Shown: piece after piece, positions 8,973 through 25,975 of the stretch
Numbering within the stretch: position 1 is the first letter of the stretch
How the letters are laid out: the number at the start of each line of letters is the position of its first letter
Source of the DNA: Erythrobacteraceae bacterium
Lineage (GTDB): Bacteria > Pseudomonadota > Alphaproteobacteria > Sphingomonadales > Sphingomonadaceae
NCBI GenBank assembly: GCA_027487015.1
Contig: JAIYEK010000169.1
Span: forward strand, 9,080 to 73,079
DNA: 64,000 nucleotides
Direction: 5' to 3'
Notes under the pieces: generated by a model
What the model was told of the DNA's origin: nothing
Databases searched by the model: none
The model's input: the letters and a program-made list of their open reading frames with translations, nothing else
Position numbers and translations under genes: made by a program

Positions 8973-9963
8973 GGAAGGGCTGATCAGTTCTTGGCGTGCT
9001 CTCGCTACGCGGCAAGGCGACGCAGAATGGCGCCTTGTCAATTTGGCCGCGATCGACTTGGTGACAGTTCAGGCCGGACGGCATTTTCCTGACAGCCGTG
9101 AGGCGCTCGTCGTGGCGTTTCCGGCCGGATGGTTGGGCAAAGTCTCGGGCCTTCCAGATGGTAAGGGCTTTGAAGCAACTCTGATTGAAGGAAATCCAGC
9201 CTTTCTAGGAAAGGATGTAATCGCCTTGATCAGGCGGCTTGAAGGCGCATTCGACATCTTCGCCATCATGGTCGTCGATCTGCTCCGATTTCTTGAAGAT
9301 AGCCGATCCAAGGACGCAAGAGCGCTTGTTGCTGGTTTTCTCGAGCGTGTCAGGGAATGGCAGAGCTTCATGTCCCGTGGAATCAGGCCGCTCTCTCAGG
9401 AGGCGCAAGCGGGACTCTATGGCGAGCTTGCCGCACTGCAGGTGCTCGTCGACGTGATGCCCGGGGGATCGGCGTTCGATGCTTGGAAGGGGCCGATGCA
9501 TGCCGCACAGGATTTCCATCTCGGATCGGGTGCCTTGGAAGTTAAGAGCACCACCACGACCGACGTTTTCAAGGCTCGCATAAACAGTATCGAGCAACTG
9601 GATTCAGAGCGGCAGCCGATGTTCTTGGGTGCAATCCGCCTTAAGGAGGATACTGGCGGCTCCAGCCTCAATAACTTGATCAGTCTGCTGCGTGACCTTG
9701 CAAATGATCGCGGCCGCAGGCGAGGATTCGACGCACTTCTGATCATGGCCGGCTATTACGATGAGCACGCAGCCTATTATGAGCGCGCCCTGTCTCTCGA
9801 CGAGTTCAGATGTTTCAAAGTGGATGATGAGTTCCCGGTCCTTCGTCGGGCACAGTTGCCGGCTCAGGTAACAGCAGCAACCTATACACTTGATTTGAGC
9901 TCGATCTCGCAACCTGACTTGGGCATCGACGGGGCATTGTCGGCACTGGGGATTTCTGAATGA
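8956..9963 (+). CDS. PD-(D/E)XK motif protein (putative nuclease)
   Basis: QDFHLGSGALEVKST fits a D...E-x-K core. It overlaps Z1 by 17 nt and shares an ATGA overlap with the AIPR gene. Confidence 0.6.
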   Translation: MTGWTEEGLISSWRALATRQGDAEWRLVNLAAIDLVTVQAGRHFPDSREALVVAFPAGWLGKVSGLPDGKGFEATLIEGNPAFLGKDVIALIRRLEGAFDIFAIMVVDLLRFLEDSRSKDARALVAGFLERVREWQSFMSRGIRPLSQEAQAGLYGELAALQVLVDVMPGGSAFDAWKGPMHAAQDFHLGSGALEVKSTTTTDVFKARINSIEQLDSERQPMFLGAIRLKEDTGGSSLNNLISLLRDLANDRGRRRGFDALLIMAGYYDEHAAYYERALSLDEFRCFKVDDEFPVLRRAQLPAQVTAATYTLDLSSISQPDLGIDGALSALGISE

Positions 9964-11759
9964 GTATCGAAGAATTTCACCGGGGTATCCGTTCGGAAAT
10001 CCAGGCAATCGTAGCCGAACGAATATTGAGCGATGACGGCACGTTTCCGTCGGAAGAACTCATCTACGCCGAACTCGCCATGGAGCAGGTCGCAAATGCG
10101 AACATTTGCGATTCACCGACCATTTGTCACTGGACAGGCACCATTGGAAACGCTCGCCTCCGGATCACTGGTTACGCGCTATCGAACGATGAAACCTGCC
10201 TCGATCTGTTTGTGACCCGCTATTTCGGGACGGATGAGATCGAGAACCTCCGCGACTCCGAGGCAACCTCGACAGCGAAGGAAGGCATAAAGTTTCTGTT
10301 CGAAGCCGCCGGTGGCCGCCTCGCATCCCGGATGGAAGCCAGCGGCGATATCTATGAGCTGGTCCTGTTCATCAAAGAACACTGGTCCAGCTTGGAGCAA
10401 TTGCGTGTTTTCGTCGTCACCGATGGCCAGACGAAATCAAAGCGGTTCGCTCCCAAGGAAGTTCAAGGCAAGATTGTCGCAATCGAGGCGATGGATATCG
10501 AGAGGCTCTATCGTCACACAACGGGCAAGCCTCGTGACGAGGTATCCATCAGCTTCGAACAGACGCTGGGGCGTCCACTCCCATGCATCCACGTACCCGA
10601 CCCTGATGCGGACTATGAATACGCACTTACAGCCATTCCGGGCGAGGTAATCCGGGAGCTGTACCTGCGATACAATTCCAGATTGCTAGAAGCCAATGTG
10701 CGGACCTTCCTCGGTTACCGGAGCAGAGTGAACTCCGGCATCGCAGAAACCCTGTTGAAGGAGCCCGAGCATTTCATGGCCTTCAACAACGGGTTGGTCA
10801 TCGTCTGCGACAGTGCCGAACTGAGCCGATGCGAGGATGGCGGCTTGGGATTCTCGTTGATTAAGGGGCTGCAGATCGTCAACGGCGGCCAGACAACCTC
10901 ATCCATCTTTTTCGCGTCGCGCGATCGGAAGGAAATCGACCTCAGCCATGTGATGGTACCGGCGAAGGTCATCATCTTGAAAGGTGACGACGACGATGCC
11001 CGCGAGCGGTTGATTTCCAACATCTCAAAGTTCGCAAACAGCCAGAATGCTGTGAAGACCTCCGATCTTTCGGCAAACCGCCCCTTCCACGTCCAGCTTG
11101 AGAAGCTGTCAGAGGAAGTCTGGTGCGCTGACGGGGCAAGCAGGTGGTTTTACGAGCGCGCAGCCGGCGCCTACCAGGTAAGGCTGCTCCGCGAGCGTAC
11201 CGACGCTAAGCGGCGTGAATTCCAGAAAATCGTTCCTACAAAGCACAAGCTCTCGAAGAATGATGTTGCGAAGTTTCATGAAGCTTGGCGCGGAAAGCCT
11301 GCCCAAGTTGCGTTGGCGGGTGAAAAGAATTTTGCCGCCTTCATGGCAGCGTTGGATGAAAACCCCGAACTGGTGCCCACTCCACTGACACCGGAGTGGT
11401 ACCGGGCCCTAATTGCGAAAGTGGTCATTTTCCGGGCCATCGAAGGCATGATCAAGAAGAAGGATGCGAAGGAGACGTTCCGGCAGGGCTGGGTTAATAT
11501 TGCGACCTACACGGTCGCCGCGCTGGCCCAGAAGATGCCGGGGCGGATCGATTTCGAACTGGTCTGGCAGCAGCAGGACATTTCTGAAAGCTTCGGAAAG
11601 CTGCTCTGGGAATGGGCCAAGGTTGTGAACGCCACGTTTGACCGGATCGCCCCGGGACGGCAGTTTTCGGAAGTCGCCAAGCGCGCCGATACTTGGAAGG
11701 CTGTCCAGAATGCTGACTTTCCAGAACCGAAGGATCGCATTCCCGAAATCAAGGCTTGA
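9960..11759 (+). CDS. AIPR (abortive infection phage resistance) family protein
   Basis: The call rests on its size, on position as the last gene of a GHKL-Z1-PD-(D/E)XK cluster, and on the central block FNNGLVIVCDSAE...GLQIVNGGQTTSSIF, which is typical of AIPR as I recall it. Confidence 0.65.
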   Translation: MSIEEFHRGIRSEIQAIVAERILSDDGTFPSEELIYAELAMEQVANANICDSPTICHWTGTIGNARLRITGYALSNDETCLDLFVTRYFGTDEIENLRDSEATSTAKEGIKFLFEAAGGRLASRMEASGDIYELVLFIKEHWSSLEQLRVFVVTDGQTKSKRFAPKEVQGKIVAIEAMDIERLYRHTTGKPRDEVSISFEQTLGRPLPCIHVPDPDADYEYALTAIPGEVIRELYLRYNSRLLEANVRTFLGYRSRVNSGIAETLLKEPEHFMAFNNGLVIVCDSAELSRCEDGGLGFSLIKGLQIVNGGQTTSSIFFASRDRKEIDLSHVMVPAKVIILKGDDDDARERLISNISKFANSQNAVKTSDLSANRPFHVQLEKLSEEVWCADGASRWFYERAAGAYQVRLLRERTDAKRREFQKIVPTKHKLSKNDVAKFHEAWRGKPAQVALAGEKNFAAFMAALDENPELVPTPLTPEWYRALIAKVVIFRAIEGMIKKKDAKETFRQGWVNIATYTVAALAQKMPGRIDFELVWQQQDISESFGKLLWEWAKVVNATFDRIAPGRQFSEVAKRADTWKAVQNADFPEPKDRIPEIKA

Positions 11760-11813
11760 TGGCATAGGCCCGGTTATTGGCCTGGCACAGAAGTCGGCTC
11801 CCACTCGGTCTTT

Positions 11814-13313
11814 TCAAGTGATAAGATCGTGGACGATGTGTGCAATCTGCTTGGCGAGGAAGCAGGGAACGGCATTGCCCACCTGCTTATACTGTTCGGT
11901 ACGCGGGCCGCAGAAGTAGTAGTTATCAGGGAATGTTTGCAGCCGGGCTGCCTCTCGGACGGTCAGAGATCGACACTGCTCAGGGTCGGGGTGAATGAAG
12001 TAGTGTCCGTCCTTTGATATATGGCTGGTCACAGTCGTTGAAGGAGCGTCCGCAAGCTGTACCCTGAAGCGATCCGCAAATGCCCCGCTCTCCCGGTTCG
12101 CGTGATTAGGTTGCAAGATGGCGGGGAATTCCTTCAATTTGGGAGAGTAACCATACGACTGCGCAAAAGCTGCAGCATAAAGGTATCGCCCCAGATCGCC
12201 TTTAATGTGGCCCCGTGTTTCATGTTGCAACGAGACTTCCAGCAAGGGGTCTTCAAGCCAGTCGGCGAGTGCCTTCGATGGGATCGGCATCGCGACATCG
12301 GCCGAGACACGCGGCTGACTGCCCATCTCATTGAGTTTTGAAATATGCCGCAGGACCGGAATGACTGAGCATGGCAGCGTATCATCCGCCGCCAGCTTCG
12401 AAGCCCACTCTCTCACGGCTTCCTGCCAATTTGTGGCAGCATCATTCTTACTGAGTCCGCTGCGCAGTTTAGGCATACCGCCGATCGCCGCGACAACAGA
12501 GTTGGATTGCGATGGCTCTGATTTGGTCAATAGCGGCCCTGTGAGCGTCCTTTCCTTCGCCACATCCGCCCTGAGACCAATAATGAAGACCCGATGCCGG
12601 GCCTGTGGGACCCCGTGCTCCTCAGCACGGACCACGAATTCTTTGGCCGTATGATCGACCAGCAGGTCGCCCTCCGCAGTAAGCGGAATGAGGACATATC
12701 CGTCACCTGCCGACCGGAGGTCTTCGAAAACCCGTTCAAAGATCGGACCTCCGTGCACGTGACTGGACAATATGCCCTTCACGTTTTCCATCACGAAGGC
12801 TGCAGGCTTCAACCGGTCAAGGATTGCAACGTATTCCCGGTAAAGGAAATGGCGCCCATCGCTCTCCGCGACATAGTCCTTTTTTCCCGCATTCCGCGAC
12901 CGGCCAGCCAACGAGTATGCTTGGCACGGTGGGCCACCAATCAACACAGTACGTCCGCTACAACGTTCGCGGGCACCATCGAGAATGGGGGCCAAATGTT
13001 CGAAAACACCGGCAGTTCCAAGCTCAAGTTGCTGCGCCTCTTCAATCGCTGTTTTCCAGTTAGCTGGATAGGATAAGGCCCAATCCGGCATCGCACGCGA
13101 ATGATTCAACGCCTCGTAATACTCAGCAGGAAACCCGCCTTCAAAGCTGCGGAGAAAAGCGCGAAGACGAAGTGTTTGGATGGCAAAATCATCCTTTTCA
13201 ACAGAGAGCCTTATCGACATGGGCGTGGCGCTTTCCCCGCCAGCGGCAGAGAACCCCTCACCCAGCCCGCCGGGTCCTGCGAATAAATCTACAATTTCAA
13301 TCTTGCTGCTCAA
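11814..13313 (-). CDS. dcm: DNA (cytosine-5) methyltransferase
   Basis: Motif I IVDLFAGPGGLGEGF, motif IV LIGGPPCQAYSLAGR, motif VI FVMENVKG, and C-terminal YKQVGNAVP are all present. The start is TTG at 13313 preceded by GGAGG. There is no in-frame ATG upstream before a stop. Confidence 0.93.
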   Translation of the reverse strand: MSSKIEIVDLFAGPGGLGEGFSAAGGESATPMSIRLSVEKDDFAIQTLRLRAFLRSFEGGFPAEYYEALNHSRAMPDWALSYPANWKTAIEEAQQLELGTAGVFEHLAPILDGARERCSGRTVLIGGPPCQAYSLAGRSRNAGKKDYVAESDGRHFLYREYVAILDRLKPAAFVMENVKGILSSHVHGGPIFERVFEDLRSAGDGYVLIPLTAEGDLLVDHTAKEFVVRAEEHGVPQARHRVFIIGLRADVAKERTLTGPLLTKSEPSQSNSVVAAIGGMPKLRSGLSKNDAATNWQEAVREWASKLAADDTLPCSVIPVLRHISKLNEMGSQPRVSADVAMPIPSKALADWLEDPLLEVSLQHETRGHIKGDLGRYLYAAAFAQSYGYSPKLKEFPAILQPNHANRESGAFADRFRVQLADAPSTTVTSHISKDGHYFIHPDPEQCRSLTVREAARLQTFPDNYYFCGPRTEQYKQVGNAVPCFLAKQIAHIVHDLIT

Positions 13314-13719
13314 GTGGCCTCCATCTGGAGCATTCCTATATGGTCTCCGGCGATTTTGACCAGGCCGAAACTTGACAAGAAACCGATTGATTGACCGACA
13401 TCCTATCGCCTCAAGCTTGGATCAACTTTGTCGGGCGAGTCTTGGTGATCTGAATGACCGCGAATGCGGACGATCCGGAACGGCTTCTTTCAGGGGCGTA
13501 GATCGGAATAGCGGACGTTCGGGACCGCCAGTTGGCGTGTGAGTTTCGCGCCCTATGTGGGTCGTTCCGACTTTGATTAGGCGGTGCCCGAAAGGTATTA
13601 TTCGATGGTCGCGGATAGCGACAGATCCGAGCCTCTTGTCAGCCATTCGCAGGGCGGCAAATCCGGCGAGCGACAAAGCCGAGCCTTCGAAGCCTGCCGA
13701 TGTCGAGCCCGGCAGCAGA

Positions 13720-14589
13720 TTAGTGACCGGCGGATTTAGCTGCAGCGTCCGTCCAGCGAATCAGATTCCGATATCCGTTATCCAGCTTCCAGTCATAGCT
13801 AGCAGTGCCGGTATCAAGAGGCATGACGCAGCCTGGAGAAGGCCTTTGCAACCACCGCGGCCAGCACGTCAGCGGTTGGGCAATTTTTGAATAGGGGTAC
13901 CAACCGCCGTTGACAAACTCGTAGATTCTCAAGTCCCAGCCGAGCGCCATCTGTGCTAGCGGGTTGAACCCAGCCGGCAAAAATCCCGTGCGTGGGCATT
14001 CACATTTGTCGATATGGACCGCAACGAGACCATTTCCCCGCGCGAGACTGCGCGCGATCTCATAGCGAACCCATTCGCGGGACCAGGTCTCGGTGCCAAC
14101 GAGTACGCAGGTGACGGACGTCCCGAGCAGTCCTCTGTCGATCACGCGCCTGAGATTGGCCGGGTTCGTACGCTTTACTCGCTCCCAAAGACTGCGATCA
14201 TTCGGAGTGAGAAGGCGGCCTTTGTCTGCCGGTCTGATCTTGCCCGAGTTGCGGACGTGATTAACCCGAAACACATCGCTAAAATGAAACGAATAAAACA
14301 CGTTCCGGACTTTGATGGCTTCGCGGGCTGGCTGTTGCGGCGGCGGTAACTCAAGAGCCTTGAGGATATCTCCGAGGAAATTCCGGTGCGGCTCCTTGGC
14401 CGATTGGTCGCTGCTTCCGAAGAGACTGTTAGTTCGGGGGACGGCGGCCAGTTGTTGAAACCGGTTTTGCGCGGGCTTCGGTGTGTCCAGCAGCGCCGCG
14501 AGCGGGGACATCTGATGGTTCGTCCGAGGTGGCAGGTCGGCCAGCGCTCGGGCGATGATTTCCAGCAGGTCTCTGCTCGGCTGGTCCAT
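13720..14589 (-). CDS. ThsB-like TIR-like (DUF1863-type) protein with a roughly 95-aa low-complexity N-terminal extension
   Basis: VRNVFYSFHFSDVFRVNHVRN, SLWERVKRTNPANLRRVIDRGLLGTSVTCVLVGTETWSREWVRYEIARSLARGNGLVAVHID, and ASYDWKLDNGYRNLIRW follow, block by block, the Thoeris ThsB / MTH538 TIR-like pattern as I remember it. Third positions in this frame are GC-rich across the overlap with the upstream ORF. Confidence 0.8.
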   Translation of the reverse strand: MDQPSRDLLEIIARALADLPPRTNHQMSPLAALLDTPKPAQNRFQQLAAVPRTNSLFGSSDQSAKEPHRNFLGDILKALELPPPQQPAREAIKVRNVFYSFHFSDVFRVNHVRNSGKIRPADKGRLLTPNDRSLWERVKRTNPANLRRVIDRGLLGTSVTCVLVGTETWSREWVRYEIARSLARGNGLVAVHIDKCECPRTGFLPAGFNPLAQMALGWDLRIYEFVNGGWYPYSKIAQPLTCWPRWLQRPSPGCVMPLDTGTASYDWKLDNGYRNLIRWTDAAAKSAGH

Positions 14590-15019
14590 GACTTGCTATA
14601 TATAGAAGAATGGACATGCCGGCCAGTAGGGCTGCATAAACCCCGGCAACCGACCAGCTGAAAAAAGCGACGCCAATCCTCCTCGCATTGAGAGGCCGGG
14701 GGCTGAGGCTGATAGCGTCGGCGCTGCTGAGGGGTGCAGAACACGTCGACTCATAAAGATCTCGAAATCGCCTCTCCTGCGCTAGATAATAGGCATCGAG
14801 CAGCGCGAACAGCAAAGGAACCGCCACGCCAGCCCAGACCAGCTCAGGCACAGGCTTCTGAAATGCAACGGCGACCAGGGCGGCGAGCACCGTTATGCAA
14901 AAATTCTTTGCGCTGGCGCTGAAACCCGACAGGCGCGAAATAATGCTCTGAATCATCTCCAGATGCGTCAGACGCATCTGGACCAGCGATTCCTCGGACA
15001 GCGAGGGCGGTGGGTCCAT
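14429..15019 (-). CDS. small multi-pass membrane protein (3-4 predicted TM segments), candidate effector
   Basis: ATG 15019 is preceded by GGGAGAAG and lies 21 nt after the pAgo stop. Hydrophobic segments are FCITVLAALVAVAF, LVWAGVAVPLLFALLDAYYL and IGVAFFSWSVAGVYAALLAGMSILLYI. The last ~53 codons overlap the ThsB-like gene out of frame and have poorer GC3, so the true C-terminus is uncertain. Confidence 0.65.
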   Translation of the reverse strand: MDPPPSLSEESLVQMRLTHLEMIQSIISRLSGFSASAKNFCITVLAALVAVAFQKPVPELVWAGVAVPLLFALLDAYYLAQERRFRDLYESTCSAPLSSADAISLSPRPLNARRIGVAFFSWSVAGVYAALLAGMSILLYIASHGPAEQRPAGNHRPSAGRPATSDEPSDVPARGAAGHTEARAKPVSTTGRRPPN

Positions 15020-15040
15020 CCGGCTTCTCCCTTGCAACGA

Positions 15041-16543
15041 TTAGATATAGTGCCGGAACGGCAACGGTGGCGGGTCGAGCTCGGGAGGAATCGCCGTCAA
15101 TACGCGCCCGACGCGATCGGCGAACCGGAGCGTGACAGGCATGCCGTCGGCGTAGAGGCACGCATTGAAATTGACCTTCGTCAGCGCGAGGACATCTGCC
15201 ATCACGGTCCGCAGATCGGCTTCGCCTCGGCAGATGTCGATCAGCAGTGGGTTCGGAACCTCGCGCCCCTGATAGGTCTGTAGCCGGGGGACAAAGCCCA
15301 AGGTCCACAACAGCCCCGATCGTGCGTTGAACGGGCGAGCCAACCCGCGAAGCGACGTGAATTTGTCAGCCCGGTAGAGCTTTCGCAGATTGTTGCGTTT
15401 GATGCGCACCCCCACGAGCTTCGTCGTTGCCGGCACAGCCGCTTCGAAGCCCGCCCACTCAACTTCGTTGAAACGCGCTCGCCCGTGGATAAAGACCTCG
15501 CGGGGGTCCTCGCCATGCTGTTTGCGATAGGCCCCAATCGCCTTGCGCATCAGCGCCTCGGCATGCGCACGATCAAGATGGAATTCATGCGTCTCGTCCG
15601 AATACCAATCGCCGATGGCCCCCTTGAACACGAGCCCGTCGCTGTCGGAAAGAAACATCTGCGCGCCGCAGCAGGCCTGGCTTCCCGAATGTTCGTCGAG
15701 GCGCTTGTAAACCATCCCAAGATAGCAAACGCCGGGCCGAATTCCGTCGAGGCGCCAAGGCTGCCCCCCGCCCTTGTAGAAGGCGCCCGTCGCGAGGTTC
15801 CACGCGACATCGACCGGATCCTGCAATCTTCGCTGCGGGAATACATGCGGTGCGAGCGTCGTTTCGCGGATCACCTGAATCACCGCGCGCGAACCGAGCA
15901 GCCTGCCCTTGAGCTGGTCGCGGAAGTCGCGCGCATAGCGATGCATTTCGGCACCCTTGTTGATCGCGTCGAGAAAAGGAAGAAGAGGTTCTGATTTCAA
16001 AGACCGGGCCTGCTTTCGCGAGAGGACCTGATCCTTGTGCGTTCGTTCGGCGACGGGAACCTGCGATTTGGGTCGCCCGCGCTCGTAGATCGTCTCGGGA
16101 ATGACGACACACCAAAGCGAAACCGGAAACTCCTCTTCGTCGATATATTGGGCAATTCTGCTCTCAAAGAGGCTGACTGTATTGTAGATGCGCTGGTGTC
16201 CGTCTGCATGGCGCAACGCCTCGTCGATGTCCTTGGGGTCGATTTCGATGCTAGCGATAGGCGCTTCCGACCAGGTGCAGCGAAAGGTTGCCGCGAAGCC
16301 GGGGAACAGGGACTGTTTGGGATCGTCTGCCTTGCTGACCGCGATAGGCCCCTGAATCGATGACACCCATTGCCGCAAATAGCGAAGCCCATCGGGTGTT
16401 CCAATCGCGCCGACGCGCAACTCCTTGGGTTGGCGCCGATCATGCACCGGTCCAAAAGCGGTCAGCCCGTCCTTGGGATGCTCCATTGACTGATCGTAGC
16501 CGAAAACGCAGCGCGGCTCGGGGATATGCCAAATTTCGCTCAT
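15041..16543 (-). CDS. short prokaryotic Argonaute (MID-PIWI only), SPARTA-type
   Basis: It is 500 aa from ATG 16543, with an ATGA overlap with the TIR-APAZ stop. The MID-type motif AFYKGGGQPWRL is present. PIWI-like blocks include CYLGMVYKRL and QMFLSDSDGLVF. The C-terminal end reads ...PPLPFRHYI. Confidence 0.85.
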   Translation of the reverse strand: MSEIWHIPEPRCVFGYDQSMEHPKDGLTAFGPVHDRRQPKELRVGAIGTPDGLRYLRQWVSSIQGPIAVSKADDPKQSLFPGFAATFRCTWSEAPIASIEIDPKDIDEALRHADGHQRIYNTVSLFESRIAQYIDEEEFPVSLWCVVIPETIYERGRPKSQVPVAERTHKDQVLSRKQARSLKSEPLLPFLDAINKGAEMHRYARDFRDQLKGRLLGSRAVIQVIRETTLAPHVFPQRRLQDPVDVAWNLATGAFYKGGGQPWRLDGIRPGVCYLGMVYKRLDEHSGSQACCGAQMFLSDSDGLVFKGAIGDWYSDETHEFHLDRAHAEALMRKAIGAYRKQHGEDPREVFIHGRARFNEVEWAGFEAAVPATTKLVGVRIKRNNLRKLYRADKFTSLRGLARPFNARSGLLWTLGFVPRLQTYQGREVPNPLLIDICRGEADLRTVMADVLALTKVNFNACLYADGMPVTLRFADRVGRVLTAIPPELDPPPLPFRHYI

Positions 16544-18024
16544 TCGTCGTCCTCTGCGTCTAGGGCATCCCACGGATCGAAGCTGTCGTCTTCGTCCGCG
16601 TCGATGTCGTCCTCGGGAACTTCATCGTCTCCAGAAGGCGAACTAGCCGCCGCTTCGACTGACTTTTTTTTCGCTCTTGGCGGCGGTGGATCGAATGAAA
16701 CGGGGCATATCCATCGCTCGGGTCGGCAGTCGATCACGCAGCTTTGATCGCGCGATACAGGCAGCTCTATCCGTTCAGTTCCATCAGACAGAAAGGAGAA
16801 ATAGGCGAGGTAAAGGGTGCGCCATTGCTCGTTGAACCATTGCTTGCAGAAGCTGCGGCGGATTTTATGCGCCTTGTCGGGGTCGCCCAGCAGCTCGCGG
16901 CCGTTGATGGTGAAAGCGACATGCGCCTCGACATGCGCTTCATCTGCCTCTCCGAATGCGAACTGGAGCCGCGGCGCATAGTGCCAGTGCATGCCGATCA
17001 CCCGTTCGTCGCCAACCTTCTTTGTCTTCACGCCATAGAGATATCGCTTCCGCTTGCGGCCGTCGAAGTCGGTAAACCGGACGTACTGGCCCTCGACCAT
17101 TCCCAGCGGAAGGAACCATCCGACCCGATTAGATGCAAGCTCAAGCCGCTGTAGACCGCGCGCCTCGCAAAATCGATCCCAAGCTTGCCGTAGCATGTTC
17201 ACGATATGATTGGACGCGTCGCGCCGCGATACGATGGGCGCGCCTCGCTCTGCGCTAGCGTCGAGAAAATCCTCGATGCTCACATCCGCGCGCAAGCTGA
17301 GCGCTGTTTCCGGCCCAAGCATTTCCCGAATCTCGTCTTCGGCAGCGAAGGTGATCAGCAACGCGCCATTGATCACGCTGGGGACCTTGAGGCGGCTTGG
17401 CAAATGTTTCAGGCCATCCGCCGAAACGCCAACATTGTGAAAGCGAATGCGTGGAGGCAGTTCAGATATTCCCAAGGAATTGGTCATGAGCTCGCTTTCG
17501 CGCTCGATGACGCGATGGCTGCCTTCAAACCAGTTCGCTACCCATTGCCCGACCGCGCTTGGCGTAGCCGATTTCGGAAACCCTTCCTTCTCCAGTAACT
17601 TGAGCAAACGAGCGAGGCCTTCCGCCCACGAAGGATCGAACGGAATAGCATTCTGCCTACCGAGCTGAATCGGCATATTGCTGCGCCTCAGCGGGCCAAG
17701 CGTCACCGGCACAATGAAGTCGGTATGCTGGACACCGATGCTTTCCGCCGTTGCGACCGCTCGCTCTATTTCATCGAGGACGCCATTTTTGTCACGCGTT
17801 ACGCTCGATACGGCGACGACGGTCTTGCCGATTACGGTATCGAAGGCCTCTTCGATATCGACCCAGAAGCGCTCGCCACCGATTAGCTGTGTCGCCTCGG
17901 ACCATACGCTATAGCCGGCATTCGCAAGCTGCATCCCGAGCCACGCTGCAAATTCCGTATCTTCTGGCATCGCGTGACTTAGGAAGATCACATCTCTCGA
18001 CGGCGTCGTGGCCTTACTGCTCAA
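16540..18024 (-). CDS. TIR-APAZ protein (SPARTA partner), with an acidic C-terminal tail
   Basis: N-terminal TIR: DVIFLSHAMPEDTEFAAWLGMQLANAGYSVWSEATQLIGGERFWVDIEEAF...VVAVSSVTRDKNGVLDEIERA. A ~300-aa APAZ-sized region follows. The tail is DDEVPEDDIDADEDDSFDPWDALDAEDDE. The start is non-ATG: TTG 18024, or alternatively GTG 17991. Confidence 0.85.
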   Translation of the reverse strand: MSSKATTPSRDVIFLSHAMPEDTEFAAWLGMQLANAGYSVWSEATQLIGGERFWVDIEEAFDTVIGKTVVAVSSVTRDKNGVLDEIERAVATAESIGVQHTDFIVPVTLGPLRRSNMPIQLGRQNAIPFDPSWAEGLARLLKLLEKEGFPKSATPSAVGQWVANWFEGSHRVIERESELMTNSLGISELPPRIRFHNVGVSADGLKHLPSRLKVPSVINGALLITFAAEDEIREMLGPETALSLRADVSIEDFLDASAERGAPIVSRRDASNHIVNMLRQAWDRFCEARGLQRLELASNRVGWFLPLGMVEGQYVRFTDFDGRKRKRYLYGVKTKKVGDERVIGMHWHYAPRLQFAFGEADEAHVEAHVAFTINGRELLGDPDKAHKIRRSFCKQWFNEQWRTLYLAYFSFLSDGTERIELPVSRDQSCVIDCRPERWICPVSFDPPPPRAKKKSVEAAASSPSGDDEVPEDDIDADEDDSFDPWDALDAEDDE

Positions 18025-18446
18025 AATCGCAACCCCTCAGTTCGTACCGCCGGCGCATACTCTCGATTGCAATTGAGCCGCTTTCATCAAGATAGCGGTG
18101 TGCCCGACGGTTAGGTAGAATATTCTTGTCCAAACCAAACACCTTCATCACGTGGTCGGCTAGGATGAGCCACAATTGGCCCCGTAAATGAACAACCGGT
18201 TCGACGGTCAAGCGAGGCGTAGTGAATGTCGCCTTTTCAGGCGGCTGTTCTCTTCGGGTTTTGCGCCCAATATCGGTCGTCCCGTCCAGCGCGGCGCGCC
18301 CCTAAGATCCTTCGTCTGTCCATCCTGCTGCGAGTGTTGCCCGCTTCGTTCTTGCCCACGAAACAGGCAATCTGGTCATCAATGTCGATCGGCCCGCTAT
18401 CCCAGATGCTGCGGAACTCACGGACCCGGTGCTGCTTCAGCTTCAT
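18014..18446 (-). pseudogene. decayed remnant of an AAA_15/OLD/ABC-type ATPase gene
   Basis: The ORF at 18237-18446 begins MKLKQHRVREFRSIWDSGPIDIDDQIACFVGKNEAGNT. This is the classic N-terminus plus Walker A region of this family (M.L..v.v.NFRSi.d...i......tvlvGkN.sGKS), but it loses frame right after the P-loop. The short ORF 18014-18211 may be a C-terminal leftover. Confidence 0.4.
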
Positions 18447-18617
18447 CTCAAGCCCATCCTGTTGCTTCGCTGCGCGGTAATCGCAGGAATCTCCATAAAG
18501 GAACAGAAAGCGAACGGAAAGCCTTGCGATTTGCTGATCTGTGGGCAGATAAGTGAATAGAGTGTAGCAACATCATCACCGAGTGAAGAACGATCTTCGG
18601 TTCGAATATTTGTTGTT

Positions 18618-19118
18618 CTAGACTTGGAAAAACTCGGGCACCCCCTTCAGCGCGGCTAGCACCGACGTGCAGACATGCAACACGTCGTGTTTCTTACCGT
18701 CCGGGGTCTCGACCACGACCGTTTCGCGGGCATCGGAGTGCGTTGTTCCGTCTGAATAGTAGGAACCGTTGCTGAACGCCGCACCCTTGCCGCGATTGAG
18801 GTGTTCTGCACGCAGGCCGACTAGCTCAGACTTGGGGTGTCGGGTGAGCTCCACGTGCTTCCCGGCATTCGCTATTGCCCTGACGGTATGGAAAGCAGGG
18901 AACCTGGCAGCGATCTCCTCTGCGATCGCGTGCGGAGTGCTAGACCTGACATGCGCGACCACGTCCGCAAAGTGGTATAGGATGATGCAAGATGAAATGG
19001 CGAGGTCGTAGGCGCTTGGCTCCGCCTCGAAGCGACGGCAAAGCGGTGAAGCGAGTTCGTCGATGTATACTTGAGGATTTGAAAAGGCCATGGTTGGTGC
19101 ATACTCGGACACGATCAA
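18618..19118 (-). CDS. hypothetical protein; possible HEPN-like motif
   Basis: The ORF is 157-166 aa, with alternative ATGs at 19118 and 19091. VRAIANAGKHVE resembles the R..(G)N...H motif of DUF4145/HEPN-like domains. No other motif was recognised. Confidence 0.5.
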   Translation of the reverse strand: MIVSEYAPTMAFSNPQVYIDELASPLCRRFEAEPSAYDLAISSCIILYHFADVVAHVRSSTPHAIAEEIAARFPAFHTVRAIANAGKHVELTRHPKSELVGLRAEHLNRGKGAAFSNGSYYSDGTTHSDARETVVVETPDGKKHDVLHVCTSVLAALKGVPEFFQV

Positions 19119-19188
19119 TTATTCCACAAGGCATCATCCTCGACGTTGCAAACCCTGCAGGTTGGGGCCGCTTTCAGGAAATCGGTAG

Positions 19189-19767
19189 GGTCACTCTAAT
19201 GACCGAGATTGGCGCGTCTTCCGGTTGCCTGACCATGAAGGCGAGGTGGTGTTCGCCGAATTCTCGAATGACAACCGGCGGCTCATGACGGTGACCCGCG
19301 AGCGAATCCGGGTCTGGGATGTCAGCCGCCTCGCGGCCTAGCAAGGTCGCCCGGTGCTCGGCTTGGTCGCCGCGCTGGCGGACGGAACCGGCACCGTCTC
19401 CGAGGAAGAACGCAAGGACATCCTCATGGTGATGTCCCCCGTAGACGTTCACGAGGCTCTGCTAGCGTTGCTGAGCGAAGTGGATCGTCTGGAGGTCGGG
19501 CACCGGCGCACTTGGCTTCGGGCAGACCTTTCTGCTCCGGCCATCGAGAAGGCGGCGTGCGGCACCGGGGGCGCGCCGGGATCCCGCTTAGCGCCGGCTG
19601 CGAAAGCGGCTCTGGGTTTCGCCACTCGCTCGGACGACGGCTTCTACTTCACCATGTATACGAACAGGTTACCATACAAGATCGCGAACCTTGTGAGACC
19701 TGCAGATGAGGCGGATCTAACGGCTCACCCATCCTTGACGTCCAATAGCTCGGCCACCAAGGTTTGA
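19189..19767 (+). pseudogene. 5'-truncated WD40-repeat protein C-terminus with an in-frame TAG
   Basis: My translation gives GHSNDRDWRVFRLPDHEGEVVFAEFSNDNRRLMTVTRERIRVWDVSRLAA, then a stop at 19339-19341, then the same frame continues as QGRPVLGLVAALADGTGTVSEEERKD... to 19767. HEGEV..AEFS.D..RL.T.....IRVWDV is a canonical last WD40 blade. There is no upstream coding continuation, since a stop lies at 19186. Confidence 0.4.
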
Positions 19768-20498
19768 AAAATCAGAGGATAAGGCGTCACGGGTGTCTCG
19801 TCTACGTCCCGGCGTTTGACTACGTCCCGGTTGGCTTCTTCAGGCGGACTTGCCGACGCGCGGCGCCGCGCAATGTCCGCGAGCACCTCGGCTTCGACTA
19901 CCTTCACCCGATCGTTGGGCGTGGACGCAAGCTCAGCCGCAGCGCCCCCAACCGATTTCAGGGTGTAGATCATTCGCGCCGGAATGATCCGCTCGAACAG
20001 CGCTGCCTCGTCTAGGACCCCTTCCATACCGCCTATGCAAACCATGGCATCCGGTCGGGTATCGAGCAGCATCTGACGGCGCATTGCCGCCAGGCTCATG
20101 AGGCATTGGGGCGCCTGGCGCTTCTCAGGGTCATACCGTTCGCCACCGACAGCAGCCGTCCAAACGACCGTTGCCGCCTCCAATTCGTAGATCAGCAGGG
20201 TCGCCTCTTCGGCGACCTCGCGAAAAGCCTCGGACTGGTAGATGACCACCGAGGCGGGCGCCCGATCCTCGCCGCTTTCGGCGCGGCGTGGCTTGCGATA
20301 TTCGCCGGCCACCATGGCGACTAGGGGCGAGATCGTCGGGTGTGCTCCAAAGACGAGCCGCCCGCCCCGCGCAAACACAGCCCGCGCTAGGCTAATGACC
20401 GCCTGTTCGATCTCGAAAGCGGCGCGCCGCTCGCGGCGGAAACGCTCGGCACGTTCCGGCAGGGGCACGCTTGCGGACAGGAAGACGGTCAACATCAC
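19725..20498 (-). CDS. stand-alone SLOG (LOG/DprA-like Rossmannoid) domain protein, TIR-associated type
   Basis: VFLSASVPLPER...AVISLARAVFARGGRLVFGAHPTISPLVAMVA and VCIGGMEGVLDEAALF fit the SLOG pattern of TIR-associated clades (hFhSAS.P / GGHP / GG.eGh). The start overlaps the upstream stop (TGATG). Confidence 0.65.
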   Translation of the reverse strand: MMLTVFLSASVPLPERAERFRRERRAAFEIEQAVISLARAVFARGGRLVFGAHPTISPLVAMVAGEYRKPRRAESGEDRAPASVVIYQSEAFREVAEEATLLIYELEAATVVWTAAVGGERYDPEKRQAPQCLMSLAAMRRQMLLDTRPDAMVCIGGMEGVLDEAALFERIIPARMIYTLKSVGGAAAELASTPNDRVKVVEAEVLADIARRRASASPPEEANRDVVKRRDVDETPVTPYPLIFQTLVAELLDVKDG

Positions 20499-21787
20499 AG
20501 ACTTCCCTGCACCATCTGACGACCGAGGATGAGCATGTCGCCCTCATCGCAGAACTTGAGAGTGCTGACATCGGCTAGCCAGGACAAGCGCGCATGCCGC
20601 CCAGGCTCCATCAGCTGCGACAATCCGATTACGACGCCGACAGTTGGGTGTGCGATTTGGCTGTGAACTCGGTGAAAATCCGGCAGGTCGGGCGGGCGCG
20701 GCGTGACCGACACGATGTAGGTTTTGCTTCCGGTCGCAGCGTTGATCTGAAAGGCGCCGAAGCCCACAGGAATTGGCCGCGAGCCTCCGGCACCCAGAAT
20801 CGCACCCTCAAGTGTCGCCTCGAGAATCTGGCGGCGGCGCACGATGGCGCGGTCGTGTTCGCGGCGGATGAGCGCAACGACCTCATCAAGCTTAGCTGCC
20901 ACGAGAACGGCGTTTGGCCTGAACGCGCCTCCGACGAAATCGATCCCTTCGAGACGCGTTCGCAGCGCCTCGTCCACACCCGGAATCGGGGGTGCGCTGC
21001 AGACGTTCAGCGCGTGCATGCCCAGGACGCAGGTCTTGGCGACATTCACTTCATATGTGACCCATGAGGACTGGAGGAAAGTGTCGGACTCTAGAAAAAG
21101 CACCATCGACTTGTCGCCGAGCTGTTCGGTTAGCCGCGCCTGGAAGTTGACGCCCGGTGGAATCCGGAAGTGATCCAGAAAAACATCGAAGCCAGCGTGG
21201 CCGAGTGCATCGAAGATCTGGATAGCGAGGCCGGCGGTTTCCGCCTGACGGTAGCTGATGAAGATCTTTGGGAGCTCAGCAGTGATTCCGGCCAAGCCCA
21301 GAATGGCCGGGACCGCCTCGGCGGGGGAGCCGCTCCAGAAGGCAGCGTTGTAGGCGCTAACCCAACTGGGAAACATCGTCGAGAATTGGGGCTTCGATAC
21401 CATCGGCGCAACCGGTAGCACCACGTGGGCGGGCGCGCCCGCCGCCCAGCCCGCCAACGCCGGCTGTTGATCCGGAAACGCCTGATGTCCGTCGGTCACC
21501 ATTACCAGAGCCTTCTGACAATTAGGTTCGTTTTGCGCGTGACAGCCGTCTATGCCGCCTAAGCCGCCGCCGCACGGCGGAACCGCTTGCCGGGTAGCGC
21601 CCATGGCAAGCAACTCAGCCGCCAGCGCATCGCGCAATTCCCACAGATCCTGCTGCGCCTGCGATGTCCCGCAGTGGGCCAAGCTGACGAGGGCGGGGTT
21701 TTGCACTGCCAAGCCTTCCCAGCTCTCACAGCGAAAGCCGCTCCCGTCCTGCCAGCGCACGATCACCTGCGCACCGCTCATCAGCAT
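20495..21787 (-). CDS. three-part protein with a central TIR domain
   Basis: KIFISYRQAETAGLAIQIFDALGHAGFDVFLDHFRIPPGVNFQARLTEQLGDKSMVLFLESDTFLQSSWVTYEVNVA is a TIR core that includes the conserved W..(Y)E position. I recognise no family in the ~175-aa N-terminal region or the ~150-aa C-terminal region. ATG 21787 is preceded by GGGAGGGG. Confidence 0.8.
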   Translation of the reverse strand: MLMSGAQVIVRWQDGSGFRCESWEGLAVQNPALVSLAHCGTSQAQQDLWELRDALAAELLAMGATRQAVPPCGGGLGGIDGCHAQNEPNCQKALVMVTDGHQAFPDQQPALAGWAAGAPAHVVLPVAPMVSKPQFSTMFPSWVSAYNAAFWSGSPAEAVPAILGLAGITAELPKIFISYRQAETAGLAIQIFDALGHAGFDVFLDHFRIPPGVNFQARLTEQLGDKSMVLFLESDTFLQSSWVTYEVNVAKTCVLGMHALNVCSAPPIPGVDEALRTRLEGIDFVGGAFRPNAVLVAAKLDEVVALIRREHDRAIVRRRQILEATLEGAILGAGGSRPIPVGFGAFQINAATGSKTYIVSVTPRPPDLPDFHRVHSQIAHPTVGVVIGLSQLMEPGRHARLSWLADVSTLKFCDEGDMLILGRQMVQGSL

Positions 21788-22400: not shown

Positions 22401-22952
22401 ATGAAAAGCCAGGACATCGTCATCATGCTCAAGCTGGTGAGCTTAGAAGACCAGATCAGGCAGGCTCATCTCGATGAACCGACGATCTCCGATCCGTTCG
22501 CACTGCGAAGTCTTGAAAGCGAACTAGGCATCAGCAAAACCGAGATCGGCGCATCGATCCGACGCAGTATCGCCTCTAACCTGGCCATAAAATCTAATGA
22601 TCGCGCCAAGGTGAACCGGCGCAATCTCACCGAATTCGTCCAGCACGGGCTGAAATATGTCTTCCCCGCAAAACCGGGCGCACCGCAGCGCGGCGTTGCC
22701 ACGGGCTTTGCCGCACCTATGCTCGAAGGTAAACTCGTAAGCTCCGGTGCCGACATCTATATTTGGCCCCATCCCGAAGGAAGTCAGAGAGGTCTTTCAA
22801 TCGCTCCGTTGTTCAAGTCTGTCCCCGACGCAGCTCTCAAAGACGCCCGACTCTACGAATTGCTGGCGCTGATCGATGCAATCAGAACCGGCAATCAGCG
22901 CGAAGCAAATCTGGCCCAACGCAGCTTTGAGGAACGGATGGCGTACGCATGA
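22401..22952 (+). CDS. putative wHTH antitoxin/regulator (AbiEi-like)
   Basis: A 183-aa ORF that overlaps the downstream nucleotidyltransferase-like gene by 4 nt. The assignment rests on gene context rather than on a clear motif. Confidence 0.45.
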   Translation: MKSQDIVIMLKLVSLEDQIRQAHLDEPTISDPFALRSLESELGISKTEIGASIRRSIASNLAIKSNDRAKVNRRNLTEFVQHGLKYVFPAKPGAPQRGVATGFAAPMLEGKLVSSGADIYIWPHPEGSQRGLSIAPLFKSVPDAALKDARLYELLALIDAIRTGNQREANLAQRSFEERMAYA

Positions 22953-23644
22953 GCCTGCAAGGTGAACTTCTCGAAATGCTGGAAACCGTCGCCCAAGCAT
23001 TGGGCGATGATCTGTGCCAGCGGATGGTGTTTGTCGGCGGGTGCTCGACCGCAGTGCTCATCACTGACGAGATAACACTGCAGGAAGTGCGAGCCACAGA
23101 CGATGTCGACCTGATCATTGACCTAGCCGGAATGGCCCAGTGGATGCAGCTGCAGGAAACCCTGCACCAAAAGGGATTCACGGTGTCGGGGGAAGATGAC
23201 GTGATTTGCCGAATGCGGCTCGGCGACCTCAAAGTCGATTTCATGCCCGACGACCCGGACATCTTGGGGTTCAGCAATCGATGGTACAAGGAAGGCATCT
23301 ACACGGCAGTCAAGTACGCCCTGCCCAGTGGGCGTGTGATCAAGCACCTGACACCGCCGATCTTTCTGGCCACCAAGCTCGAAGCCTATGCTGGCCGCGG
23401 CGCGAATGACCCCATAGGAAGCCACGATCTGGAAGACATCCTCAATGTCGTGGACGGACGACCAACACTCTTGACCGAAGTGCAGGCGGCAGAAGCCCAA
23501 GTGCGTGGGTACCTGTCGGAGCAGTTCGAGGCGCTACTACATCACCCAGACTTCGAGATTTTCCTTTATGGAAATATCCGGGGGCCCGATGGCCGAGCCG
23601 CGATGGTGCATGGCAGGGTGAAGGCGTTGGCCGGGATCAAATAG
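22949..23644 (+). CDS. nucleotidyltransferase-fold protein (AbiEii/MNT-like toxin family)
   Basis: MVFVGGCSTAVLITD...VRATDDVDLIID fits the GG...(x)n...D.D NTase signature. GSHDLEDILNVV lies further downstream. Confidence 0.55.
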   Translation: MSLQGELLEMLETVAQALGDDLCQRMVFVGGCSTAVLITDEITLQEVRATDDVDLIIDLAGMAQWMQLQETLHQKGFTVSGEDDVICRMRLGDLKVDFMPDDPDILGFSNRWYKEGIYTAVKYALPSGRVIKHLTPPIFLATKLEAYAGRGANDPIGSHDLEDILNVVDGRPTLLTEVQAAEAQVRGYLSEQFEALLHHPDFEIFLYGNIRGPDGRAAMVHGRVKALAGIK

Positions 23645-23871
23645 CGAGCCAAGCAGATGGACGCGCGGCTCGGTATTCTCTTGCAATGAAGGGGGGGGGG
23701 ACGACAGCCCGTATTCTCAAGACCAAAGAGGACCACCGGGCAAACCGAATTGTTCGTCAACAGAGCCCAGCGAGGAACCAGTCTTGCTAGTCACCGCGAG
23801 TGATCTCTACGAGCTACCTCGCTTTATCTCCGTACCGCGATTTTCGACCTAGACGGCTCCGCTGGTCCTCC

Positions 23872-24417
23872 TCATAGGAAATCACCACTCGCAAAGCTCG
23901 CGAGGTTCCGCAGCAGGTCGACCTGCTTTTCCCGGTCAGCCAAAAGCCGCTCGCGCTTGCCTCTCACGCGATCACCAAACCCAAGTCGCGCTTCCTTGAA
24001 CAGATCGAACAATACCCCGCTGGTGATCGGGTCGTGACGCCATTCTGACGTGGCGAGTTGCAGGAGGCGCTCGAACAGGAAGGCACGCTCGTTGTCGGTG
24101 GCGGTGGCCAGTGCCGCACGGAGCATCCATGCAGGGGCGGCGCGCAGCTCAAGGCGAGATACGTGCCAGACAGGCACCGCGATAAGCAGGATCGCGAACA
24201 GGAAACCGATGTAGTCGGAGCGGATTGACTCTTCTGCTTGAAGCCCTGCAGCCAGCGTGATCGACAGCAACATCAAGCCGGCAGTGAGCATGCTGGACAC
24301 GACAATTCCGGTCCAGCGCCAATGGCGGATAATGGAAAACGCGACCCGCGCTATCACGGTAGTCGCTGGACGCGTGATGAAGGTCAGGCCGGACGCAGTG
24401 CGCTGGTTGGTGGTCAT
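23872..24417 (-). CDS. hypothetical membrane protein
   Basis: A 181-aa ORF with hydrophobic segments WTGIVVSSMLTAGLMLLSITLAAGL and YIGFLFAILLIAVPVW. Codon bias is reasonable. Confidence 0.5.
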   Translation of the reverse strand: MTTNQRTASGLTFITRPATTVIARVAFSIIRHWRWTGIVVSSMLTAGLMLLSITLAAGLQAEESIRSDYIGFLFAILLIAVPVWHVSRLELRAAPAWMLRAALATATDNERAFLFERLLQLATSEWRHDPITSGVLFDLFKEARLGFGDRVRGKRERLLADREKQVDLLRNLASFASGDFL

Positions 24418-24566
24418 AATGGGCCTTTCGAAAAGATGAACTCGGACAAATGCTGACGGCCCCAGGTCATCGGAAAGTGGGGATTGATCCGTCAGCTAAA
24501 CTTCACGTCTGACACCGATGGCTGAGGCTTCGTCCGCCTCGACCCGCCAAATCAGCGCTGATGCAT

Positions 24567-24815
24567 CTACCAAGGATCGAACCCGCTGCCGGTCGAGCCA
24601 GGCGCATGATGATCATGGCTGTGATGGGCATGTTGGTCGTCCCAGCGATCCAGATCCTGGCCGAAGGGATTGCCGCTGACATCTACTCTGCCAATGCCCG
24701 GTCCAGTCATGGGGAGCCCGGTGGCAGGGTTGATGGAAACGCCCTCGTCAGAGGAGGCTCGCGGCGGGTCGCTTGATCCTGCGAATAGGTCGGTCAGCCA
24801 ATGGAGCAGTTGCAT
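24567..24815 (-). CDS. small hypothetical protein (His/Asp-rich C-terminus)
   Basis: An 82-aa ORF, MQLLHWLTDLFAGSSDPP...DRWDDQHAHHSHDHHAPGS. It sits downstream of the partition genes in the same orientation. Confidence 0.35.
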   Translation of the reverse strand: MQLLHWLTDLFAGSSDPPRASSDEGVSINPATGLPMTGPGIGRVDVSGNPFGQDLDRWDDQHAHHSHDHHAPGSTGSGFDPW

Positions 24816-24865
24816 AGGGTTTCTCCTATTAATGAAGGGCTTCGGCAGCTCGATTGCGCTGGCGC

Positions 24866-24917
24866 TGCCCTCATGTTCACACGTTCACATGCGCACAGTC
24901 ACACATGCCCACATCGC
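24866..24917. repeat. CACATG-type repeat array, copy A (inverted relative to copy C)
   Basis: Sequence: ccctcatgttcacacgttcacatgcgcacagtcacacatgcccacatcg. Its reverse complement contains ATGTGGGCATGTGTGACTGTGCG and GTGTGAACATG, matching copy C. Confidence 0.8.
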
Positions 24918-24953
24918 CGCATCCTCCTTCTCCCCTTCCGGCGAAGGGATCGT

Positions 24954-25900: not shown

Positions 25901-25905
25901 GTGTA

Positions 25906-25975
25906 TGCGTCCTCATGTTCACATGTGGGCATGTGAGACTGTGCGATTGTTGGGATGTGCGGGTGTGAACATGGT
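25906..25975. repeat. CACATG-type repeat array, copy C (intergenic, between the relaxase stop and the parA start); putative parS/operator
   Basis: Sequence: cctcatgttcacatgtgggcatgtgagactgtgcgattgttgggatgtgcgggtgtgaacatgg. It is bounded by the 10-bp inverted termini CATGTTCACA / TGTGAACATG. Confidence 0.8.

Follow-up and report, generated by a model that had tools for sequence, protein, structure and literature searches.

The analyzed window is a stretch of 64,000 nt from an Erythrobacteraceae bacterium (contig JAIYEK010000169.1, positions 9,080 to 73,079 of the forward strand). Its minus strand holds four adjacent genes, which encode a TIR-APAZ protein, a short prokaryotic Argonaute (pAgo), a small transmembrane (TM) protein, and a ThsB protein. 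The first two form a SPARTA (short prokaryotic Argonaute and TIR-APAZ) system, and the last two are best described as a type V Thoeris-like module. The four genes probably represent two autonomous abortive-infection systems that have been fused head to tail into a cassette that spans about 4.7 kb and lies within a dense defense island. This view builds on the identities of the genes, their catalytic-type residues, the three TM helices of the membrane protein, the occurrence of each system on its own in other genomes, and the joint inheritance of the four genes in one clade of sphingomonad SPARTA systems. Both component systems are of already known kinds, and the novelty lies in their conserved pairing: literature searches yielded no description of a conserved cassette with SPARTA and type V Thoeris in one operon.

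The cassette begins with a leader at 18025..18152, presumably the promoter region, the outer edge of which is the end of the block shared with other genomes: homology of the DNA to the related loci L001, L086, and L087 (L numbers designate loci throughout) ends at 18148-18152. The TIR-APAZ gene (16540..18024, 494 aa) has a TTG start codon at 18024, and the motif GAGGGG is present 7 nt ahead of it. Its stop codon and the start codon of the pAgo gene (15041..16543, 500 aa, ATG at 16543) share an ATGA at 16543-16540, as had been noticed in the original prediction; the sequence at this site reads '...gacgacgaATGAgcgaa'. The pAgo stop codon TAA (15043-15041) is followed by a spacer of 21 nt (15020..15040), which harbors AAGGGAGAAG at 15033-15024 and, within it, the Shine-Dalgarno-like motif GGGAG (15031-15027). 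The spacer of L001 also has 21 nt, with three substitutions, and that of L002 has about 14 nt and another purine-rich stretch, GACGAGGAGG. Then follow the gene for the putative ThsF-like membrane effector of the PDC-M50A family (14429..15019, 196 aa, ATG at 15019) and thsB (13720..14589, 289 aa, ATG at 14589). The start codon of thsB lies inside the preceding open reading frame (ORF), and the tail of this ORF and the 5′ end of thsB overlap by 161 nt (14429..14589). Both the 21-nt gap and the internal thsB start had been proposed earlier and were verified. The downstream flank (13468..13719) still belongs to the shared block, as the homology to L001 reaches 13468.

The SPARTA nature of the first two genes, as originally predicted, was borne out by matches to protein models and to solved structures. 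The TIR-APAZ protein matched the PADLOC model Aga_TIR-PNTD1-PNTD2 with residues 10-464 (E=1.4e-133) and the Pfam family TIR_2 with residues 13-141 (E=9.7e-12). It could be aligned with solved TIR-APAZ chains (8qlo, 8fex, and others) with E-values of 1e-42 to 1e-38, and the alignment with 8qlo covers residues 9-457 (E=2.7e-42). The GVLxE motif has kept its Glu: E85 ('NGVLDEI') is aligned with the corresponding residue in 'DGVLKEI' of 8qlo. We take this position to be the catalytic residue of the SPARTA structure papers. The pAgo protein matched the 493-position PADLOC model pAgo_I with residues 2-500 of its 500 residues (E=1.4e-193). Like the characterized SPARTA (Koopal et al. 2022, PMC9097488), the window therefore has two overlapping genes, a TIR-APAZ protein that aligns over its full length and has the conserved Glu, and a pAgo that is a full-length match to the PADLOC model of class I short pAgos, a kind of about 500 aa with MID and PIWI only. 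In contrast to this system, two further genes follow 21 nt behind the window pAgo, and an acidic tail of about 45 aa (…DDEVPEDDIDADEDDSFDPWDALDAEDDE) forms the C-terminus of the TIR-APAZ protein. The tail comprises residues ~450-494 (window 16540-16680) and extends beyond the region aligned with solved structures. It is present in L001, L081, L082, and L087, and was not aligned in L002, L009, and L086. Compared with metagenomic SPARTA loci outside of the sphingomonad clade, the window TIR-APAZ is about 30-37% and the pAgo 44-53% identical. Several distant SPARTA loci (L011-L014) contain a gene for a protein of 1106-1129 aa at a distance of 13-126 nt downstream of pAgo, and therefore other SPARTA lineages also have tightly appended third genes; the gene in L011 matched PADLOC HmaC (AAA+ ATPase, E=1.8e-81) and DUF499.

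The third gene encodes a membrane protein that matched the PADLOC model PDC-M50A with residues 16-141 (E=7.9e-24). A hydropathy analysis located hydrophobic segments at residues ~38-54, 59-79, and 115-141, and the AlphaFold model is all-helical, with helices at residues 9-54, 60-94, and 122-144 (pLDDT 90.5). Of the '3-4 hydrophobic helices' that had been expected, three were thus recovered as membrane helices with both approaches, but not a fourth. The conserved core comprises residues 1-145 (14585-15019), whereas residues 146-196 form a non-conserved tail that runs through the thsB start. The protein belongs to a very large family, of which a profile search retrieved 5291 cluster representatives at E<=1e-3; these are typically about 135 aa long, and none of them is annotated in Pfam. 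Near-invariant residues are concentrated in the N-terminal amphipathic helix (R16, H19, Q24, R29, S34, K38) and at the end of helix 2 (D75, Y77/78, E82, R86, Y89), and S121 and S123 are also near-invariant. Residues R16, H19, R29, K38, and R86 are compatible with a positively charged ligand pocket, by analogy with type V Thoeris effectors, and according to the positive-inside rule this pocket would be at the cytoplasmic side.

Known folds and families did not offer a closer assignment. A fold search of the PDB with the AlphaFold model did not retrieve a solved relative (best E=0.33), Pfam did not assign the window protein to a family, and DUF2270 (PF10028) was not matched by it even at E<=10. 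Among its relatives, DUF2270 is the most recurrent weak match (5/17 and 9/39 members), with a best E-value of 0.012 and 14.6 bits versus a cut-off of 25. A Macro domain was not detected by Pfam in the protein or its relatives. The possibility of a SLATT effector, as in type VII Thoeris or CBASS, was discarded, as no SLATT family was among the Pfam matches even at E<=10. Two distant members of the family, which matched PDC-M50A with E-values of 1e-50 to 1e-55, have partners other than TIR proteins. The first is paired with an unannotated protein of 996 aa (L062, 3001-6401), and the second with an unannotated protein of 318 aa beside a giant LRR-Roc-COR gene (L065, 2020-3399). Different kinds of sensors therefore seem to make use of the small membrane protein as their effector.

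The product of the last gene had been described as ThsB-like and turned out to be a genuine ThsB. It matched Pfam ThsB_TIR with residues 98-195 (E=1.7e-19), PADLOC ThsB1 (E=2.6e-41), and PDC-M50B (E=2.7e-40). Residues 95-280 aligned over the full length with ThsB from B. cereus (6LHY/9B7D, E=1.3e-29; the title of 9B7D is 'putative cyclic ADP-D-ribose synthase ThsB1'), and the catalytic-type Glu in WVRYEI is conserved. The full TIR-like domain is preceded by an N-terminal extension of about 93 aa, which consists of a helix, a Pro-rich linker, and an LFG motif and is kept in all Sphingomonadales-type copies. A remnant of a decayed module was found on a 422-kb plasmid of Sphingopyxis macrogoltabida (NZ_CP009430, L077, 5980-6297). 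It is a fragment of 82 aa annotated as 'TIR domain-containing protein', its DNA is 91.5% identical to part of the window thsB, and its neighbors are genes for 'mobile mystery proteins', an integrase, and an AbiEii toxin.

The overlap of the two genes is a recurring trait of this module. In all sphingomonad-type modules (window 14587-14592, L002, L004-L007, L009), the thsB ATG is located at the final codons of TM helix 3, e.g., as CAUG in 'His-Gly', and short TM homologues (139-150 aa) end exactly where the thsB ATG sits. Overlaps of 110-290 nt are present in standalone copies of the module as well. The TM ORF of L082 stops right after helix 3, and therefore a long overlap is not obligatory. 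In comparison with L001, 33/48 substitutions in the TM core and 41/62 substitutions in thsB are at third codon positions, while the 24 substitutions in the overlap (14429-14589) are distributed across all codon positions in both frames. This shows that the TM core and ThsB are under purifying selection and that the 161-nt overlap is only weakly constrained. The TM tails are variable and appear to result from read-through across the sequence encoding the N-terminal extension of ThsB, and the 51-residue tail in the window is probably such a tolerated read-through. A hairpin was predicted on the minus strand at 14560-14640, in which AUGUCCAU pairs with AUGGAC(C)A, so that the start codon of thsB is hidden in the structure (-29.7 kcal/mol, z=-3.2, 1/200 shuffles). 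It was considered as a conserved device for translational coupling, but it is weak in L001, the closest relative (z=-1.5), and absent from six other loci, and thus it is probably not a conserved regulator.

The membrane protein and ThsB of the window match the PADLOC models PDC-M50A and PDC-M50B in the A-then-B order, and therefore the pair is an already catalogued two-gene candidate defense system. PDC-M50 stems from a 'guilt-by-embedding' screen, in which the cassette CAS_00164, with 57 RefSeq instances, was detected inside BREX, DISARM, or type I restriction-modification (RM) systems and was nominated without experiments (Payne et al., bioRxiv 10.1101/2024.01.29.577857). The name 'PDC-M50' was found in the supplement of this study, but in no main text searched. 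Canonical members encode proteins of about 135 aa and 165 aa and do not overlap (L064), whereas the window pair is longer, overlaps, and sits in a pAgo context instead of the BREX, DISARM, or type I RM embedding from which PDC-M50 was nominated.

The pair could furthermore be connected to a recently defined Thoeris type. Types V-XI were defined by Yirmiya et al. (preprint of December 2025, bioRxiv 10.64898/2025.12.03.692087). Type V consists of ThsB and ThsF, a 'DUF2270' protein with three TM segments that is activated by 3′cADPR (a cyclic ADP-ribose isomer) and, according to modelling, forms a channel-like heptamer that has positive pockets. The same study reported operons in which two effectors answer one signal, and it discarded TIR-pAgo contexts from the TIR survey, so that a pairing of SPARTA with ThsF-ThsB would be missed there. 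Three independent lines of synteny suggest that the TM family of the window is the family labelled DUF2270/ThsF in this study. First, L071 contains two ThsB genes that are 94% and 90% identical to IMG 2517867516 and 2517867518, both of which are listed as 'DUF2270 - Type V' in Yirmiya Table S1, and the sole gene between them encodes a PDC-M50A protein of 136 aa (E=1.5e-50). Second, plasmid homologues of the validated type V ThsB of B. thuringiensis from Terribacillus pT1 (47% identity), Priestia CP023318 (49%), and a Klebsiella plasmid (39.5%) each abut a gene for a protein of 135-136 aa, and these three neighbors match the profile of the window TM subfamily (A3) with E-values of 4e-22 to 8e-31. 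Third, the closest plasmid homologue (67%) of a second validated ThsB, from Bacillus sp. 1NLA3E, has a TM protein gene of the same family about 190 nt downstream (tblastn with the L071 TM protein, E=1e-30). The best two plasmid matches to the B. thuringiensis ThsB (B. cereus and Priestia CP085436) were set aside as sources of ThsF neighbors, as they are type I and II contexts and have no TM gene. The ThsB core of the window is 41-51% identical to three type-V-associated TIRs in Yirmiya Table S1, and sphingomonad genomes were not found among the rows listed in the part of Tables S1 and S3 that was available.

From these comparisons, we conclude that the TM-ThsB pair is a type V Thoeris-like module, with the link to ThsF made by synteny and not by direct comparison with a validated ThsF. 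Like type V, it has a ThsB gene beside the gene for a small effector with three membrane helices. It differs from type V in that the window TM protein has no Pfam DUF2270 match, the ThsB is extended by 93 aa at its N-terminus, the effector ORF and thsB overlap by 161 nt, and the pair is placed behind SPARTA. The 3′cADPR signal and the ring oligomer are features of type V that may hold for the window pair by analogy. With type II Thoeris (ThsB and TM-Macro; Sabonis et al. 2025, as described in PMC13434031), the module would share the activation of a membrane-spanning effector by a TIR signal and killing by membrane damage; however, the window effector lacks a Macro domain, and its conserved part has only about 145 aa. 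The original prediction had offered, as one of two alternatives, a two-gene Thoeris-like module of ThsB and a TM protein behind SPARTA, and this alternative fits the evidence. The accompanying statement that either architecture was undescribed does not hold, as the pair equals PDC-M50 in PADLOC and, by synteny, probably DUF2270/ThsF type V.

A small membrane protein gene next to an Argonaute gene might also encode an effector of the pAgo itself. In the SiAgo-Aga1-Aga2 system, a membrane protein is the pAgo's own effector. The window shares with long-B pAgos with TM partners (PMC10620215) that an Argonaute gene adjoins the gene for a small membrane protein. In these systems, however, the membrane protein is the effector of the pAgo, whereas the window TM protein belongs to a huge family with TIR or other partners in the nine pAgo-free contexts examined. 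The interpretation as a pAgo-specific membrane effector of the long-B partner or Aga2 kind was therefore rejected; homologues of the window pAgo or TIR-APAZ are absent from the SPARTA-free contexts L003-L007, L062, L064, L065, L071, and L084.

The four genes are kept together in other genomes. The order SPARTA-TM-ThsB is found in eight related loci, with pAgos that are 83-98% identical and spacers of 14-23 nt between pAgo and the TM gene. The four-gene order is intact in the window, L001 (Sphingobium sp. OAS761), L002 (Novosphingobium mathurense), L081, L082, and L086, and thsB is cut by an insertion sequence (IS) in L083 and L087/88. The DNA of the window from 18149 to 13468 (~4.7 kb) is 91.5% identical to L001, and the similarity does not reach beyond this block. 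The identities to the window proteins (pAgo, TIR-APAZ, TM, and ThsB, in this order) are 98, 94, 88, and 88% for L001, 96, 94, 86, and 88% for L086, 88, 80, 75, and 68% for L082, 88, 80, 76, and 66% for L081, and 83, 81, 66, and 60% for L002. As judged from these values, all four genes diverge in parallel, and they are passed on as a single cassette that is placed in different surroundings. Flanking direct or inverted repeats were not found at the 4.7-kb block, and therefore there is no evidence for a discrete transposable unit.

The two systems nevertheless occur without each other. Searches with the TM protein retrieved modules without SPARTA in various contexts: standing alone (L006, L007), 26 nt behind a gene for a TIR protein of 368 aa (L004, L005), behind TIR and SLOG genes in a P2-like prophage (L084/85), in a seven-gene operon with the order TIR x3, SLOG, ThsB, TM, ThsB (L071-74), and in the canonical short form (L064). 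In L003, which also lacks SPARTA, a TM protein that is 59-62% identical to that of the window is paired with a different ThsB (PDLC00419, E=1.7e-63). Conversely, none of 30 metagenomic SPARTA loci with pAgos of 44-73% identity and at least 1.5 kb of downstream sequence contains a TM or ThsB gene. Each system is therefore autonomous. The survey of gene neighborhoods that had been proposed to check the co-occurrence of the TM gene, ThsB, and SPARTA thus gave a mixed result: TM genes accompany ThsB in many genomes and the four-gene order recurs in eight loci, but the 30 distant SPARTA loci lack the module. The ThsB extension, the embedded thsB ATG, and the long overlaps are common to SPARTA-linked and SPARTA-free sphingomonad copies, and therefore none of them is specific for SPARTA. 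In addition, thsB has been disrupted in two lineages by ISs with DUF4096 / DDE_Tnp_1 transposase fragments. It is truncated after residue 183 in L083 (~2366-2812) and after residue 47 in L087 (5700-6497) and L088 (3958-4743), while TIR-APAZ, pAgo, and TM are intact in all cases. As read from these sequences, thsB is dispensable, and its loss beside an intact SPARTA fits the independence of the two systems.

The four genes are probably transcribed together, as had been suggested earlier because of their packing and of an apparent lack of separate signals. The first part of this argument stands, because the genes are tightly packed as one apparent transcription unit and this packing is kept in other genomes. 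The second part is weak. A consensus scan of 13000-19500 did not reveal a promoter-like site on the operon strand, but it also failed to detect the operon's own promoter, which we infer to be located in the leader at 18025-18152, where no sigma-70 consensus was detected. The number of terminator-like matches in the same region was at the level expected by chance (8 versus 6.5), and none was at a gene junction. The RNA of the pAgo/TM junction does not form a stable hairpin (folding z=+1.55), and the folding of 13640-13725 equals that of shuffled sequences (z=0.0), which gives no support for a terminator there. The cassette is probably expressed as a single transcript. Alternatively, the TM gene and thsB might have their own promoter in the 3′ end of pAgo, and the cassette would consist of two merely abutting transcription units. 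The module obviously carries its own expression signals elsewhere, as L006 and L007 contain it as a standalone pair and L009 in divergent orientation, and a scan that misses the SPARTA promoter is blind to promoters in this organism. However, the two genes are only 21 nt apart, with a ribosome-binding site and without a hairpin, the spacer is 14-23 nt in all eight loci of this order, and the genes diverge as one block. We therefore regard two separate units as doubtful.

Several observations weigh against two systems that are simply fused. Co-transcription was deduced from packing with a promoter scan that is insensitive in this organism, and the TM protein fails Pfam DUF2270, with no match for the window protein and E=0.012 for relatives. 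Moreover, every member of the SPARTA clade that was found has an adjacent module. This includes L009 (pAgo 81% identical), the only close relative found via pAgo, in which the module is divergently transcribed and located upstream of TIR-APAZ. The L009 module is very distant, with identities of 32-33% for TM and 45-46% for ThsB, and is thus more distant than the standalone copies; it appears to stem from another, independent juxtaposition event or from a replacement of the module. That the two systems came to lie side by side more than once is a hint that their pairing is selected for. Lastly, the SPARTA-free relatives (L004/5, L071, L084) usually have another Thoeris TIR gene just upstream of TM, and therefore SPARTA occupies the slot of a signalling TIR. 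All clade members but one were found via the TM protein, however, and the count of adjacent modules is therefore biased.

The recurrent adjacency and the slot taken by SPARTA could be explained by the other alternative of the original prediction, a functional hybrid. In this case, the guide-directed SPARTA would be an additional sensor TIR, the product of which, or the accompanying change in NAD+ or ADP-ribose (ADPR), would also gate the ThsF-like effector, resulting in two sensors and two routes of killing. In favor of a hybrid are the adjacency, which is seen in two orientations and involves two module lineages that differ strongly, the TIR genes directly upstream of TM in SPARTA-free loci (at 26 nt in L004/5, and via TIR-SLOG in L084 and L071), the conservation of the tight pAgo/TM junction, and the fact that the link would have escaped the survey of Yirmiya et al., who dropped TIR-pAgo contexts. 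On the other hand, the characterized CrtTIR-APAZ produces non-cyclic ADPR and nicotinamide instead of a cADPR isomer (Koopal et al., PMC9097488), the module is missing at 30 other SPARTA loci and has no SPARTA-specific feature, thsB decays independently, the TM gene is widespread without any pAgo, and the adjacency count is biased. We thus consider a functional hybrid improbable. Direct support was not found; the features of the module are the same with and without SPARTA and thsB was lost twice to ISs next to an intact SPARTA. Also improbable is a more specific version, in which SPARTA was recruited in the sphingomonad clade into a Thoeris-type pathway, as its guide-programmed sensor, and the activated TIR-APAZ, directly or via an NAD-derived product, triggers the ThsF-like effector alongside ThsB. 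If this version were true, nucleic acid recognition by an Argonaute would be linked to TIR second-messenger signalling and membrane killing.

For the preferred reading of two fused but autonomous systems, the mode of action can be outlined by analogy. As in characterized SPARTA systems, the pAgo/TIR-APAZ heterodimer would bind small guide RNAs, and recognition of abundant complementary invader DNA would lead to oligomerization, activation of the TIR NADase, and depletion of NAD+. In parallel, ThsB would sense phage infection and synthesize a cyclic ADP-ribose isomer from NAD+; for type V, 3′cADPR has been shown to be the signal. The three-helix ThsF-like protein would bind this signal, form a ring-shaped oligomer, and breach the inner membrane. 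The signal molecule, the oligomerization of the effector, and the absence of cross-talk between the two pathways are thus inferred features of this scheme. If the systems are simply fused, the cassette is an example of defense genes that are packaged and inherited as an operon-sized unit, and it adds a sphingomonad branch with an extended ThsB and overlapping genes to type V Thoeris. If the pairing means cooperation, plasmids and phages might be covered by one transcript, membrane killing might serve as a backup once phages restore NAD+, or a signal might truly be shared.

The surroundings of the cassette offer one further potential partner. A TIR_2 protein of 430 aa (TIR430) and an SLOG (LD_cluster3) protein of 257 aa are encoded by two genes on the minus strand at 19725-21787, 1.7 kb upstream of SPARTA, which overlap by 4 nt and represent a type III Thoeris-like pair. 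The earlier statement that a ThsA effector is absent therefore has to be revised on two counts: an SLOG gene with its own TIR is close by, and the TM protein itself belongs to an effector class. It could be envisioned that, in this window only, TM and ThsB work together with TIR430 and SLOG in a composite of types III and V, in which two sensors and two effectors share a signal, and that SPARTA and orf166, a gene between the SLOG gene and SPARTA, were inserted between them. In agreement with such a composite, L084/85 contains consecutive genes for TIR421 (43% identical to the window TIR430), an SLOG-like protein of 253 aa (37%), TM (67%), and ThsB (43%), i.e., the order of the window minus SPARTA and orf166. 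L071-74 carry three TIR genes, SLOG, ThsB, TM, and ThsB, and two effectors per signal have been reported by Yirmiya et al. However, L001, L002, L081, L082, and L086 contain the block without a homologue of TIR430 or SLOG in the 1-7 kb upstream. In addition, the DNA homology to L001 ends at 18149, well short of orf166 and SLOG, and therefore the block was acquired, or is moving, as a separate unit. A composite system is thus rather unlikely.

The gene orf166 (18618-19118, minus strand) encodes a protein of 166 aa and lies outside of the block shared with L001. Its product has no Pfam or PADLOC match, and a homologue was not found in any related locus. The dense defense island around the cassette extends over 2255-13313 and 22401-29085 of the window, and the TIR430-SLOG pair belongs to it as well. 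These two regions contain a complete Mza system, MzaA-E (MzaC E=0, MzaE E=2e-153), genes for a C5 cytosine methylase (499 aa) and a RecD/TraA-like helicase (1036 aa), and both genes of the PADLOC candidate PDC-M21 (E=1e-72 and 1e-104).

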